In this document: positions 10,800-19,955 of the stretch, in pieces
Layout: each line of letters begins with the position of its first letter
Numbering within the stretch: the first letter of the stretch is position 1
Assembly: GCA_003427395.1 (NCBI GenBank)
Contig: BFEA01000035.1
Span: 2,668,008-2,732,007 of the forward strand
Length of the DNA: 64,000 nt
DNA from: Chara braunii
Taxonomy: Eukaryota; Plantae; Charophyceae
Reading direction: 5' to 3'
The notes under the pieces: model-generated
Databases searched by the model: none
What the model saw: only the letters and a program-made list of their open reading frames with translations
Told to the model about the DNA's origin: nothing
Made by a program: the position numbers and the translations under genes

Positions 10800-11599
10800 C
10801 TAGTGGTTTTGAAAATCGAATGAGCTAAGTATTTTGATAACTTGAAATAATTTGAGTGTTGGTGACAGATATTATCATGCTTACTTGTGTGTTTGTGAGT
10901 TTTTTTTAGGGGCGTGTTTTTGATAGCTTAGTCGTTGAGATGCTCGCCAAGTATTCGAATGATAGATAGAGTACTGACGGTCGGAGGAGGGAGTTTGAGA
11001 TAAGATAGGATGACCTTACCGACAGTCAAAAGTATAGTTAGTTCGTTGTCGGTGCGAATACCCTTACAAGGGTATCCGCCCTGGTTTTTGCAAATAGCAG
11101 GGAAGTAGGTTTGGTTTAAAGTCTAAGTATACCGCACGAGGCGCGACCGAGTCTATGGTTTACATTGACTGAGTAGCTGATTAGAGTAGAGAGTGTGTGG
11201 GCGCGTAGACTTAAGGCGCGCGTGATTTCTTTTTATCTTGATGAATGGAGTGCCGGCGTGGGCGCCGGCCAAATTTTTAATTTCTGATTGAACTAGGACT
11301 AAATAGATTTTGTCGTTTGACTAGTAGGCTTACCGGTGACTTGTGCGCACGTGTGGAGGGTGGCGTCAACAACAAGTATGACTTTTGAAAGCACTTCGGT
11401 AAGTTGTCGCATCGCGCAGTGCCTCTTTATTTAGGCATCCGTCAGAGTTAAACCCAGACCCAGGCCTAACTCTATTGGTTACAGCGCCGGACTCTCATCA
11501 AAAGAGATTCAGGGATCGAGATCAAGCGGCGACGACGTAGGAATATCAAAATAGCGTGGGGGGGGGGGGGGGGCTACCTCCTCCGGGGTTTTGTCTGGA

Positions 11600-11690
11600 A
11601 CAAAGGGCCGAATCTCAACAGATCGTGACGACAAGGCCACTCTACTGCTTACAACACCCCGTTCCCTGTCTAAGTCGTCTGCAAAGGGTT
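11600..11690 (-). pseudogene. Fragment of the 3' end of cytosolic LSU (25-28S) rRNA
   Basis: Reverse complement CCTTTGCAGACGACTTAGACAGGGAACGGGGTGTTGTAAGCAGTAGAGTGGCCTTGTCGTCACGATCTGTTGAGATTCGGCCCTTTG matches the conserved eukaryotic LSU 3'-terminal domain as I recall it. Confidence 0.88.
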
Positions 11691-11712
11691 TTGCGGGAAG
11701 ATTCGTTTCTCG

Positions 11713-11770
<58 letters not shown>

Positions 11771-11929
11771 AGGGGGGGGGGGGGGGGGGGGGGGGCAACG
11801 GGGCTAGTCCCCTTGTTTTTGCGGTCGGCAGAGTCGGGGCAGTATTAGTGGCGACCGTCGTCTTCTGATGATTAAAACTTCCAAGTATTCAATTTTATTT
11901 TTTTCGTCACTATTATTTAGTTTTATGTT

Positions 11930-15500: not shown

Positions 15501-15589
15501 CGGACTGATTTGCATGATGGTTGACTGGGTCACTAAGGCTGGGAGGTCCTCATAAGTATGGGGAGACCCAGTGCCTTGTTTATTTTGCA

Positions 15590-16200
15590 TTTTCTGGGAA
15601 CACTCTCTTGTACTTGGCTTTGTATAAATCTTGGCAAACTACTTTCTCTACGGGAAGCGCTGCCGAAATTTCTACAAATCCAAGGAGTTAGTCAACTTTT
15701 GACTTGTCAAAATTCAACTTGTCTTTTCTTTATATCTGACTTGGTAAAAATCTGAAAAATCTTCTTTTCTAAAGGGAGTGTTGTCCAAATTGTTGCTAAA
15801 TCAAGGAGTTAGACAAAATTGGACTTTGAAAAGTCAAAGTAACTTTCAAATTCTGGACTTTGCCTTGTATAAATTTTAGAATAACACTTTTCTAGAGGGA
15901 ATGCTGCCGAATTTTCTGCAAAACTAAGGAGTTAGTTAAATTTTATCTAAGTTGAACTCAAGTTGTCTTTTGAGTTGATATGACTTAGTATAAATCTGGA
16001 AAGTCTCCCTTTCTAAAGGGAGTGCTGGCCGAATTCCACTGATTCAATGAGTTAGGCAGAATTTGACTTTCCAGAGTTAAAGATTATTTCTGCTTTCATA
16101 TTTGGACGTATATAAATTCTAGAAAGACACTTTTCCTACGGGAAGCGCTGCCGAAATTTTCTTAGTTTAAAGGAGATAGATTATATTTTGACAGGTGACG
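15590..16200 (+). repeat. ~120-bp tandem repeat (5 units); related arrays at 17830-18292, 32290-32630 and one unit at ~36435-36490
   Basis: GGRAGYGCTGCCGAAWTT...AGGAGTTAG motif recurs at ~15652, 15774, 15898, 16018 and 16140. Confidence 0.85.
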
Positions 16201-18956
16201 ATTCGGTAGCCATCCTATAACTTTCCGATGCGGAAATCGAATAGGCGCCGCGCGCGAGACTTGGTATAAAACCACGCGGACGCAGGGCCTACTCATATTG
16301 ACTCGCAATGCAGGCGTACGCAAGCAGTCGCAATGATGGCGTACTATGTAGTGCCCATAATCAAGCGGTCTCTCGTGGATCCGAGTCCCGCTTATGACAC
16401 TCAAGTGTCAGACTCGAAGTGTCGTGAGGGTCTAATTTCTCACGATATTGCACGGCTGAAGGAATAGTCGTGCAGCCGCCGCGAGACCTCCGGCCTTTGG
16501 TCTGAGTGTCTCGGTAGGCAAGGCAAATAGGCTCAGCACGGGGGAAGATTTCTTCCCTACAGAGTCTAGGGCTTCGAATGTCCTGGACAAGGACCTTGAA
16601 TCCTGGCCCAGGACTAACGTCCGACTATAAAAATGTCTAAAAAGCAAAGGGTAAAAGAGGATCTTTTGTTTCTCTTACACCCATAATCTGTTTAACCCTT
16701 ACGCGCGGTCCCAGTAGGCCGCACGAAACACTCGAGACATATATCTACACATATATATAGAGGGTTATTAATATAGGACAATCACTTCTCACAGTCACAA
16801 TGTGATTCCTCTCAGCCATATACATATGTATATGAGCGCAGATAGTCAAATCCCAAGTCCGAATCACCAAGCATACATGCAATCACATCAAAGATTCAAC
16901 CAGAAAAGTTCAAGCACTACACGGGTCAACTTCAACCATTCTCTGCCCTCACACCCCTTGCTTTAGCCATACAAACCTCAACCTTAGCGCACCTTCCCAG
17001 CAATAAAATACTCAGTAACTTTGTTAAATGACCATTCAATAAAGTCCGGGTAAAAACACAACAAAACAGACAAAACCACAGGGCTTAAACCTTTAGGTTA
17101 AGTGGCAGGAGTGAATTGGAGTCGAGTCGTAAGCCGACGAATCGGCAACCGACCTGTTATCAGTGATAACAAAAGATGATCCTCAAGGGATCATGCTGAA
17201 TCTAGTCCTGAACTTGAATCAAACAATCAAGAGGGTCTGTAACACATGACAGGTCAATGCCCCAGGCTAACCCTATAAGTACATGGAGAACAATCTCCAT
17301 ATCATGATCTTACCCAAGTCGACCGACGACGGGCCGCGTTTCGGACCTCAGCCCCCCCAAGATGTCGGTTCGCTTGCGGGTTCGATAGAGGCGTACTGCC
17401 GCGCATACCCCCTATGCTACAGCGAACGAGAAAAACCCTCGGCTGGTTCACCTGTGCGATTGCAACTGATCAGCTTTCGTACTGTGGACTGGTAGCTCGG
17501 CGGGGATACGCCCACCGAAGGGAGGTGACAGCTCTCGTAAGGTGGAGGTAAGTCGTGCCTCGCGTAGGCCCTATCCTGTCGTAGGAGCTCGCGAGAGGTA
17601 TGGCTAGCGCACTCGGCCGGAGCGGCTTGCGAAGACTCCATGAATATTTTGCGACGAACGATTTAAACCAACTTCTGCGTGACCCGGCCGGGAGGGTCCC
17701 GCGCTGCCTTGCGCGGTGCCGGACCGATGCGCTCGACACCGTGATACAGTCTCAAAAGGAATACCATGAAGATTATCTTTAATTCTCATAATCGGGTTAA
17801 GTGTCAGAGTTTATCCTAGGTCTAGTTGTACTTTGTTTTTCATACTTGACTTAGTAAAAATTTTGGGAGCTCATTTTCCTAAAGGAAGTGCTGCCAAATT
17901 GTTTACAAATTCAAAGAGTTTGTTAAGTTTTGTTTTTGTAAAGTAGGGTTGTAGTCTGATTTCATTTCCAACTTAGTAAGAATTTGGGAAGTTCACTTTC
18001 TTAGACGAAACGTTGCCGAATGTTTTGCTAATTCAAGAAGTTAGACAAGATCTGTCTTTGCAAACGTTTAGACACACTTTGACTTTCATTCTAGTTTAAT
18101 TTAGTGCAAATTAATTTGGGGAGTTCACTTTCTTAGAGGAAACGCTGCTGAATGTTTTGCTGGTTCAAGTAATTAGACAAAATTTGTCTTTGCAAAAGTT
18201 TAGACACACTTGGACTTTCATTTAGTTTAGTAAATTTTTTGTAGTCCACTTTTTTAAGGAAGTGTAGTCGAAGTTTTTACAAATTTAGAGAGTTTTTTTT
18301 TTTTTTTTTTTTTCTTAAACAACTCATAGAAGTACTAGGGGTACTAGTACTATCGAAGAGGCTTCATCTATTGGTGGGGAGCGTCACCTNCTGGAAACCG
18401 GGTCCATCGTCCCTTTTAAAAAAAAAAAAAAATTGTAATTACATATTCGGAAGTCAGATCCCACTATACATCATTAGGTCTGCCAGCATTGTTTGTCATA
18501 TTTTCATAGGATTGACTGCACAGGGTTACTACTAGATATGTTGAAATGAAGTACGCTTTGGGCCTCTTCTGTATGCTCGGCCCTTGCTCCTCAATCTGCT
18601 TCATACCATTGTATGTCTACCATTGCTAACTGGTGAGGCGGGAAGGGATCGAGAAATTTTGTGGATGGTCGCAGCGGGATCTCCTGACCAACCAATATCC
18701 AGTCTTTGAAGAAAATACGGTATTTTGTTTTGAACTCTTCCCATTGGCATTCCTAGGTAGGCCTGCCGTTTCAACTTACGGAGGTATTTCAGCCCCCGTT
18801 GTCACTGTCCAACCAATCCCTTGAGAATTGTTGAATTGCTTGCATTATATCTTTGGATGAATAAAACAAATTCAATTTGTTTTCAACTTTTTGTCACTGT
18901 ACTGTTAGTTTTTGTTAAACATATTGTTTTATCATATATGTGGCCTCTCTCTCCGC

Positions 18957-19955
18957 TGTCGGCGCGAATACCCTTATAAGGGTATTCGACCTGGTTTTTG
19001 CAGGTGATAAGAAAGGTTGGGGTTTGGTCAGAATAAACTGCGTGGGGCGCGACCGCATCCAGGAACCGCCTCGGCTAAGTTAGGAAGTATGTGGGCCTGC
19101 AGTTTAAGGCGCGAGTGTGATTTTTCTGATTGAGTAGACGGCCGGTCTACTCGACCGACCTGGACCGCGTTACGGATCGGATTAAGGAATAAAAGTCTGG
19201 GGTTTGGTTGGCACACACGACCAACGGTAAGGGTTGTCGCACGGGGTGGCGCGCGAGGGCCACCATGGCGCGGTCTAAGTAAGCCTGCACGGGTGCCTAG
19301 TGTTGGCACGTCAGCTGCAGGCAGGAGAGAGGGGGCTCGGGCTATTCCTCCTAGGCCTAGGTATTGCGTGGCACCACTTCATATCGAAGTGGGCGCCCAG
19401 TTGTTCCAAGCTTGGGCTTAGCCCCATAGGTTACCGTGTTGGACTACTGTCATGGAGGTATGGGGATTGAGGCTAGCGGGCGTCGGTGTAGGAGCGGCGG
19501 AATGAAGGCGAGACTGAGGGGTTGAGGGTCCCGCGGGACTATCCCTCTTACTTTTTGTTGGGGGAGTACAGTCCCGGGCCCGTTTGTAAGAGCTAAGGGG
19601 ACCGTAGGTAGGTCCCGCTGCCTGTCTCCGGTAGACCCCTCAGTATCGTTTTGGGTTTCTGTCTCCTTTTATTATTTTTTTTGTGGACCCGATTTGGGCC
19701 CCGACACCGGGTCCGAGCGCGGCTGTTTGACCGTGGGTCTAGCTCAGGGCATTACCCACGAGTTGTCAAAGTACAGGCCAAGTGGCCTTTGGCCTCTTCG
19801 TGGGGCACTGCCCGGGTGGTCCTTCGGGACATCCGCTGATATTGGAACGATACAGAGAAGACCAGCCTGTGCCCCTGCGTGCGGATGATATGCATAAAGT
19901 GGGGGGGAGAGGGTCCCGCGCTGCCACGTGTGGTGCCAGACCGATGCGCTCGACA
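18957..19955 (+). repeat. 5' LTR of element B
   Basis: TGTCG...CGACA, followed after 2 bp by the PBS. The first ~540 bp are homologous to 11047-11550; the last ~47 bp are shared with 17692-17738 and 34850-34895. Confidence 0.85.
19819..19898 (+). pseudogene. U6 snRNA-derived sequence (3'-truncated) inside the LTR
   Basis: GTCCTTCGGGACATCCGCTGATATTGGAACGATACAGAGAAGACCAGCCTGTGCCCCTGCGTGCGGATGATATGCATAAA aligns with plant U6 nt ~1-80; the 5' stem-loop, ACAGAGA box and AGC triad are retained. Confidence 0.92.

Follow-up and report, generated by a model that had tools for sequence, protein, structure and literature searches.

The 64-kb window analyzed here, the whole stretch of 64,000 nucleotides of Chara braunii DNA, contains two copies (A and B) of a single long-LTR Ty3/Gypsy family. 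As reported in the initial annotation, both start with TGTCGG.GCGAATACC (at 11047 and 18957) and have a 5' block in common, which aligns patchily at ~64-72% identity. In copy B, a TG...CA-ended 5' LTR (18957-19955, + strand) is followed by a primer-binding site (19958-19975, +); the same arrangement, with an identical site, is found in L001, an independent copy of the family, and we take the site to be of the tRNA-Asp type. The coding region of B (20333-29726, +) consists of broken gag, protease, reverse transcriptase (RT), RNase H and integrase sequences plus a long additional ORF region. Pfam places protease, RT, RNase H and integrase in Ty3/Gypsy order (21744-26149), and the homologs of its RT/RNase H are Chara braunii proteins. 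The interior of L001 differs from that of B in being gag-only and ~4.9 kb long. Copy A (11047-17738, +) is a 6692-bp solo-LTR-like element with TGTCG...CGACA ends, both of which are shown by L001 to be the LTR start and end; there is no primer-binding site after it and no retroelement protein match inside it. In the LTRs of the family, conserved blocks on the 5' and 3' sides enclose a variable middle, and the 3' block (14946-17738 in A, +) is common to the 3' LTR remnant of B (30611-34897, +) with one segment inverted. This remnant lacks the 5' block and the host-RNA-derived sequence (cargo) described below, and the two LTRs of B have only their last 46 bp in common because both are deleted. 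No perfect target-site duplication was found at A or B, the best candidate at A being a 4-bp repeat with one mismatch. The missing LTR pairing and target-site duplication reflect damage to these copies and do not affect the Ty3/Gypsy assignment.

Extreme contig depth over the first 45 bp of the 5' block of A points to a very large family, although contig depth is here not a copy number, with 24 of ~20,300 contig pieces listed. Searches with the LTR motifs retrieved one true copy from metagenome contigs and none from viral contigs; the lone match among genome contigs was bacterial and was rejected as a chance match. ARAGORN predicted no tRNA genes in the window or in L001.

The shared block had been thought to end after ~500-540 bp, but alignments show that it runs on to a T-rich tract. 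In A, its first part (11047-11590, +) is interrupted, and the block resumes at 11790-11940 (+), ending in the tract; homology of 11790-11945 was established by alignment to L001 (0/1000 shuffles as good), direct comparison of this segment with B not being significant (88/1000 shuffles). The interruption is an insert of ~220 bp, made of (GA)n, G-runs and an antisense piece of the LSU rRNA 3' end (11596-11691, -; Rfam match at 11596-11686, E 4e-11), and flanked by two diverged ~30-bp copies of the 3' arm of a hairpin. The piece is nearly identical to expressed rRNA (206 RNA reads at 99+%, with loose ends at 11691), and depth beside it is near single-copy (read depth covers 10950-12300). Copy A acquired, within the shared block, a second rRNA piece that is a separate and younger insert.

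Behind the T-rich tract lies an old, diverged sense LSU rRNA piece (~11962-12230, +), presumably from the D2-D3 region, which was recognized by RNA reads, window ranking and diverged contigs. About 236 RNA reads fall on 11981-12022 and continue into unlike sequence, and 12137-12230 ranked first among 850 windows when searched with a snippet containing an LSU primer motif. The LSU identity of the two snippets used (L006 and L007) is assumed from their primer motifs, since Rfam did not recognize them. An antisense piece follows (12258-12402, -), identical at 104/137 positions to an Rfam-confirmed LSU stretch, and scoring 101.5, where none of 300 shuffles exceeded 44. A weak, probable sense piece at ~12510-12565 (+) was matched by 2/1000 shuffles and ranked joint first of 1826 windows, and it fell outside the top 10 of 850 windows with a longer LSU snippet; a further weak candidate at ~11932-11967 (+), chosen by eye, was matched by 3/500 shuffles. 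The initial annotation had counted at least five LSU pieces in A on both strands; the two orientations are borne out, with three supported pieces and two weak ones. Rfam by itself detects just one of the rRNA pieces of A, and does so only in larger scans, a scan of 11000-14200 alone returning nothing. A protein search with the ORF spanning the cargo of A gave no match.

The near identity of 11596-11691 to rRNA and the G-runs and (GA)n at its flanks raised the question of an assembly artefact, in which rDNA or snRNA reads would have been joined to LTR sequence at G-runs and microsatellites; the left junction of this piece is, moreover, unbridged among the 24 contig pieces listed of ~20,300. Against this, independent contigs with no differences cover 11806-12010, 11843-12083 and 12054-12282, the remaining rRNA pieces are far diverged from rRNA, and U6 recurs in L001. 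We consider an artefact extremely improbable, and any doubt arising from it is limited to one young rRNA piece at most.

The sense rRNA piece of A also occurs in other copies of the family. DNA-run contigs from two DNA samples contain diverged copies in which LTR sequence is joined to this plus-strand piece: record 13 of contig set X2 covers 11816-11995 with 29 differing letters, between 2 and 11 contigs differ in letters at 11841-12250, and a joint from 11525 to 11966, which fuses the 5' block directly to the rRNA piece, was present in DNA runs X1 and X4.

In copy B, the shared 5' block (18957-19683, +) includes the hairpin (19516-19547) and the T-rich tract. It is followed by a tRNA-SINE-like head remnant (19730-19782, +), absent from the initial annotation, which corresponds to the first ~45 nt of the head and has lost its B box. 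Its alignment score (56) equals the maximum of 1000 shuffles, and no intact A or B box is found in it by pattern. Next comes the decayed U6 snRNA copy (19819-19897, +; Rfam model positions 1-83, E 1.9e-7, with 43 bits just under the gathering score of 44), confirming the U6 identification made earlier. The LTR then closes with its conserved 46-bp terminus (19909-19955, +), which agrees with those of A, L001 and the 3' remnant at 41-42 of 46-47 positions. The 5' LTR of B (999 bp) therefore consists of 5' block, cargo and this 46-bp terminus only, everything between U6 and the terminus having been lost later.

L001 contains U6 in full length, at the same LTR position and in the same sense as B, with a T-rich run at its end, and in both copies, the only two U6-bearing ones seen, a SINE head precedes it in the same sense. 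In the head of L001, the B box is perfect and the A box nearly so, with 44 nt between their starts; this head is 82% identical to a free-standing SINE-like repeat in the window (60613-60790, -), which has an A box, a B-like box and poly(A) and is related to the pre-U6 head of L001 and B. Rfam also identified a U2 fragment elsewhere in the window. A decayed rRNA piece suspected ahead of the SINE in L001 was rejected, as 825/1000 shuffles scored equally. The contig ends 224 bp after U6; this sequence has no match within the window, shares only an 8-nt match with the LTR end, and shows no resumed homology to A (score 49, shuffle mean 49).

The presence of U6 in L001 and the rRNA joints in diverged contigs indicate that both cargos are inherited in sublineages, and the fragments occur beyond the two loci of the window. 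The observation that different host RNAs lie at one LTR landmark thus holds, with rRNA in A and SINE-U6 in B behind the same tract. The slot built on it had been proposed to be hypervariable, interchangeable and bracketed by a 12-bp direct repeat. Of this, the difference in cargo stands; hypervariability rests on two cargo types, with one rRNA piece lying inside the shared block. The bracket is false: the 12-mer GAGGGTCCCGCG occurs at 19524 and 19909 and also at 17692 and 34852, the copy at 19909 opens the ordinary 46-bp LTR terminus, and that at 19524 is part of the shared-block hairpin, whose L001 homolog differs. The pair is therefore no insertion-made duplication, and the 12-mer was rejected as a target-site duplication. 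A dedicated RNA-capture slot with fixed borders, repeatedly reloaded, would fit the start of both cargo types ~20-180 bp from the same T-rich tract and the copy that links the 5' block directly to the rRNA piece; nevertheless, a common 3' border was not found between A and L001 within the 224 bp, there are two cargo types only, and the entire LTR middle differs among copies, beyond the RNA part. We regard such a slot as very unlikely.

Conservation and folding were examined for signs of function. U6 identity between B and L001 (59/80) is not higher than that of the flanks (145/213 and 130/182; p 0.39 and 0.77) and is below that of the constrained LTR end (209/242, p 0.015). Motifs of the U6 catalytic core are damaged, L001 having a broken ACAGAGA box and B a changed internal stem-loop, and neither U6 copy folds better than shuffles (z +1.0 and -0.06). 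These data do not support the suggestion that the cargo is functional; both cargos are in decay and probably travel as passengers without a working role. The RNA data listed were oligo-dT raw reads, and none was listed for B, which speaks neither for nor against its transcription. The SINE head of L001 does fold better than shuffles (z -2.6), and its A and B boxes, with a full-length U6 and its terminal T-rich run behind them, may represent a retained promoter. A functional Pol III module, with selected boxes and U6 serving as promoter or structured RNA in the manner of Cassandra and Helenus and with B as a dead derivative, could be imagined from these motifs, and promoters derived from small RNAs have precedent in LTRs (PMC10886601). 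However, the L001 head is no more intact than the free SINE, so the boxes may be inherited rather than selected; B has lost the B box; U6 decays at the rate of its flanks; A-type copies lack the module, no boxes being seen in the alignments of A; and the LTR is kilobases long, against 311-1263 bp for TRIMp3 elements. Such a module appears quite unlikely.

In our preferred explanation, which is probably correct, sublineages of the family differ in the host-RNA sequence that follows the T-rich tract; this sequence was most likely gained in rare captures at the edge of the variable LTR middle and amplified as a neutral passenger. The sense cargos (SINE-U6 and plus-strand rRNA) would have entered as reverse transcriptase switched to abundant co-packaged RNAs; in retroviruses, U6, tRNA, 5S and 7SL are co-packaged and can be patched in by template switching (PMC4997597). 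Alternatively, a ready-made chimeric retrocopy could have inserted into an ancestral LTR. Of the three supported rRNA pieces, two run antisense. Simple minus-strand template switching does not yield such pieces, which would need an extra DNA-level step such as repair filler, inversion or separate insertion. A cargo lying inside the LTR would reach both ends of the element in every round of replication and would spread with its sublineage while decaying. No junction signature naming the capturing enzyme was seen.

A different origin would be the insertion of a LINE-made SINE-U6(-LINE) chimera and of rRNA retrocopies into ancestral LTRs, near one place by chance or local preference, followed by LTR amplification. 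This reading departs from the preferred one in origin only, and we judge it unlikely. The order of tRNA-SINE, U6 and other sequence is that of the mouse B2-U6-L1 tripartite chimeras (PMC2104539), U6 is full length in L001, the window also holds the poly(A)-tailed SINE relative and the U2 fragment, and the 11596 rRNA insert lies between two diverged ~30-bp copies. On the other hand, neither a poly(A) tail nor a target-site duplication is seen at the SINE-U6 cargo, where B is deleted and L001 ends 224 bp on, and the post-U6 sequence has no counterpart in the window. A both-strand mosaic of short rRNA pieces is atypical for LINEs.

Returning to rare captures of neutral passengers, the closest known systems resemble the Chara elements in part. 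TRIMp3 elements, namely Cassandra (5S), Helenus (tRNA) and Ajax (5S), have small-RNA sequence fixed in the LTR, and a SINE insertion into the LTR is their proposed origin (PMC10886601; PMC10946416). The likeness lies in RNA-derived sequence within an LTR and in the tRNA-type A and B boxes of L001. However, TRIMp3 are non-autonomous elements of 0.3-1.3 kb with conserved promoter motifs, whereas the Chara LTR alone reaches 6.7 kb, carrier B encodes gag-pol, and the cargo is U6 or LSU rRNA in decay. The Chara elements are not TRIMp3, given the 6692-bp LTR of A, the ~4.9-kb interior of L001 and the gag-pol of B. SINE-U6-LINE and U6/L1 chimeras (PMC2104539; PMC4476161) likewise have a tRNA-SINE followed by U6, or a full-length U6 joined 3' to other sequence, but they are inactive, one-time inserts that bear target-site duplications, whereas the Chara chimera sits in an LTR and is copied along, its LINE part or duplication not being identified in a sequence that ends 224 bp after U6. 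SINEU (U1/U2 heads) and SINE28 (28S fragments) also contain snRNA- or LSU-rRNA-derived sequence but are LINE-mobilized SINEs, not LTRs (PMC4494074; PMC10946416). Retroviral patch repair with co-packaged host RNA involves the same RNA classes (U6, tRNA/SINE) and documented template switching; these recombinants are sporadic and described from animal retroviruses (PMC4997597). Our literature search, with most subscription papers and Repbase outside its scope, found no paper on this Chara family, nor any on U6 or LSU rRNA within an LTR.

Small-RNA sequence built into LTRs is known from no more than a handful of miniature elements, for which capture into the LTR is a hypothetical origin. With its several inherited cargos (U6, tRNA-SINE and LSU rRNA), a long-LTR family of this great size would offer many natural replicates in one public genome, allowing independent captures to be counted, junctions to be read and selection on cargo to be tested. 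If the cargos are neutral, as the data suggest, interest is moderate. It is conceivable, though doubtful, that captures truly concentrate behind the T-rich tract, a hot spot in one of this alga's largest repeat families at which reverse transcription inserts abundant host RNAs (rRNA, SINE, snRNA) time and again and founds sublineages, and that at least one capture (tRNA A/B box plus full-length U6) acts as a Pol III unit in the LTR of a protein-coding retrotransposon; no LTR bearing an snRNA would have been known before it, and it would represent a precursor of Cassandra-like elements caught in the act. These cargos would also make the annotation of U6 and rRNA error-prone in the Chara braunii genome.

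The domains of element B follow the Ty3/Gypsy arrangement, with protease first, then reverse transcriptase (RT), RNase H and finally integrase, interrupted by stops, and the 120 homologs listed for its RT/RNase H segment were all Chara braunii proteins, many at 80–95% identity. A long extra ORF region downstream of the integrase (27048–29726) matched no Pfam family and dozens of Chara retroelement proteins. In the window, TGTCGG.GCGAATACC occurs at two sites only (11047 and 18957), and GATGCGCTCGACA ends at 17738 and 19955, with a primer-binding site after the 19955 copy only. 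Searching with the start motif retrieved one hit, the independent metagenome contig L001, in which the LTR end is followed by the same primer-binding site as in B, a 4.9-kb interior and a new LTR start. This layout established that the two terminal motifs are the LTR start and end, and hence that A (11047–17738) is a 6692-bp solo-LTR-like copy. No retroelement protein match was obtained inside A (120 proteins tested), and no perfect target-site duplication was found around it. The interior of L001 (L001 1475–6392) showed similarity to gag only; L001 is a non-autonomous partner of B-type elements, sharing their LTR family and primer-binding site.

The 5' LTR of B (18957–19955, 999 bp) retains the 5' block and merely the last 46 bp, and its 3' LTR remnant (30611–34897) matches A at 14946–17738 and lacks the 5' block; deletions are common in this LTR family. 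Over its initial 45 bp (11047–11091) the LTR had a summed contig depth of 4–9 x 10^5, compared with 5–10 where sequence is single-copy. This suggests that the family is extremely large (contig depth is not copy number). These 45 bp include a palindrome (11055–11079). An LTR segment of 1.1–1.6 kb is inverted between A and the B 3' remnant (16203–17316; 32740–34369), and the LTR 3' block contains AT-rich tandem units of ~122 bp (15609–16193, 32268–32641), with a relic just beyond the end of A (17833–18292). A short motif-bearing repeat that is absent from A occurs seven times in the B 3' remnant (31201–32019); decayed repeats resembling it are visible near 9250–10300.

The initial annotation had described a shared 5' block followed by divergence at about +540; the block is indeed shared, and its end had been placed too early. 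B–L001 homology reaches as far as a T-rich tract (scoring 48.5, with at most 45.5 in 300 shuffles), and A–L001 homology returns at 11790–11945 (0/1000 shuffles), a stretch over which direct comparison of A and B was not significant (88/1000). The T-rich tract, at +894 in A, +727 in B and +803 in L001, is the true divergence point. Since homology resumes in A at 11790–11945, the young rRNA piece, together with (GA)n and G-runs, is an insert within the shared block, flanked by two diverged hairpin-arm copies. Of the DNA runs, X1 and X2 gave contig depths of 8 and 6 beside it, close to the single-copy level, and X4 gave 39. Cargo begins at about +916 in A (rRNA), and at about +784 in B and +982 in L001 (SINE head).

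In B, Rfam identified U6 snRNA on the forward strand at 19819–19897 (+863). L001 contains a full-length U6 in the same sense (+1135; Rfam model 1–105, 57 bits), 73% identical to that of B; upstream of it lies a SINE head of ~120 bp, which shares 82% identity with a free repeat (60790–60613). This SINE-like repeat (60613–60790, reverse strand) has a tRNA head with an A box, a B-like box and poly(A), and was not recognised by ARAGORN or Rfam. B retains the first 45 nt of the SINE head (a match that ties with the highest score among 1000 shuffles). The 12-bp direct repeat thought to bracket the U6 segment proved to be no bracket: among its four sites in the window, 17692, 19909 and 34852 are the first bases of the LTR terminus, and 19524 is one half of a shared-block hairpin whose letters differ in L001, which also rules out a target-site duplication. 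A deletion best accounts for the B junction between U6 and terminus; sequence behind the L001 U6 matches the terminus over 8 nt, and nothing longer was found.

Rfam gave five hits in the whole window, three of housekeeping RNAs (LSU, U6 and U2). In A, an antisense LSU 3'-end piece lies at 11596–11686 (Rfam) and another antisense piece at 12258–12402 (matching a stretch that Rfam confirms as LSU at 104/137 positions). A sense piece, which we take to be region D2–D3, begins at ~11962, as located by RNA reads and a snippet match. In RNA run X5, some 236 reads fit 11981–12022 alone, in strand sense opposite to those on 11596–11691; 94% of the aligned reads continue into unlike sequence, as expected if they derive from rRNA itself. 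Within the same sense piece, 12137–12230 ranked first of 850 windows for an LSU-primer-motif snippet (56/92, score 43 versus a shuffle maximum of 38); Rfam did not recognise this snippet. There are weak signs of two additional sense pieces. The pieces are of unequal age: the 3'-end piece is young, with 206 RNA reads matching 11596–11691 at 99% or better, and the sense piece is older, with six differences listed in ~40 bp and then <80% identity.

The three DNA runs represent two samples of a single study; their contigs were aligned to 10950–12300, 24 of ~20,300 pieces being listed. The window's own contigs had depth 5–10. Among the pieces listed, a contig with 29 other letters covers 11816–11995, linking LTR to rRNA piece, and further contigs with 19–32 other letters cover 11972–12170, 12018–12169 and 12054–12300. 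A joint 11525 to 11966 appeared in X1 and X4; joints at low likeness may arise from repeats. Summed depth drops from the LTR start to 70–900 at 11272–11455 and to 5–180 in most bins of 11778–12300 (1900–3400 at 11962–12007), and on these depths the sense piece may be read as belonging to a small sublineage. The proposal that LTR copies carry different host RNAs was borne out, with two types of cargo, both of them recurring in a further copy; the cargo is real and heritable. The stretch 60430–60450, in a tandem duplicate, was among the top windows for the LSU snippet, not significantly, and is possibly another rRNA crumb.

The interchangeable bracketed slot did not hold up. Behind the cargo, A and L001 have nothing detectable in common within 224 bp, and no homolog of A 12570–14500 was found elsewhere in the window, so the cargo delimits a variable middle on its 5' side. 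The copies show a modular LTR, in which B subsequently underwent a deletion and A received an insert. Cargo within an LTR spreads through ordinary LTR replication. Its capture may have occurred by template switching onto co-packaged RNA, as documented for U6, tRNA, 5S and 7SL in retroviruses (PMC4997597). Alternatively, a LINE-made chimera could have inserted into the LTR, considered here because the SINE-U6 cargo is ordered like the mouse B2-U6-L1 chimeras (PMC2104539). Antisense rRNA pieces would require a DNA-level step; one of them is bordered by a 23-bp inverted repeat, a hint of local inversion.

Between B and L001, U6 is identical at 59/80 positions, close to the mid block (145/213, p 0.39) and 5' block (130/182, p 0.77); the LTR 3' end, compared using the B 3' remnant, is identical at 209/242 (p 0.015 versus U6). 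In Rfam alignments, the L001 U6 has lost the ACAGAGA box and the B U6 has an altered internal stem-loop, and neither folds better than shuffles. This flank-like identity, damage at differing places and lack of fold signal fit neutral decay from one capture, in one pairwise comparison, and the cargos are probably neutral. That the site is both a true capture hot spot and a working Pol III unit seems unlikely.

The family resembles the first step proposed for Cassandra, Helenus and Ajax, small-RNA-derived sequence fixed in an LTR (PMC10886601; PMC10946416); size and coding capacity rule out TRIMp3. Of the promoter motifs, L001 carries both the A box and the B box, and element B has lost the latter. 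The terms 'snRNA' and '28S' are absent from the main text of the Helenus paper (PMC10886601), and SINEU and SINE28 carry snRNA/rRNA-type sequence but are SINEs (PMC4494074; PMC10946416). In the literature outside Repbase and subscription papers, no U6- or LSU-bearing LTR family was found. Outside the A and B LTRs, Rfam detected U2 snRNA (54450–54599), a 5' fragment in a ~167-bp tandem duplicate (54450–54852, reverse strand), showing that snRNA fragments form part of the background in the Chara braunii genome.
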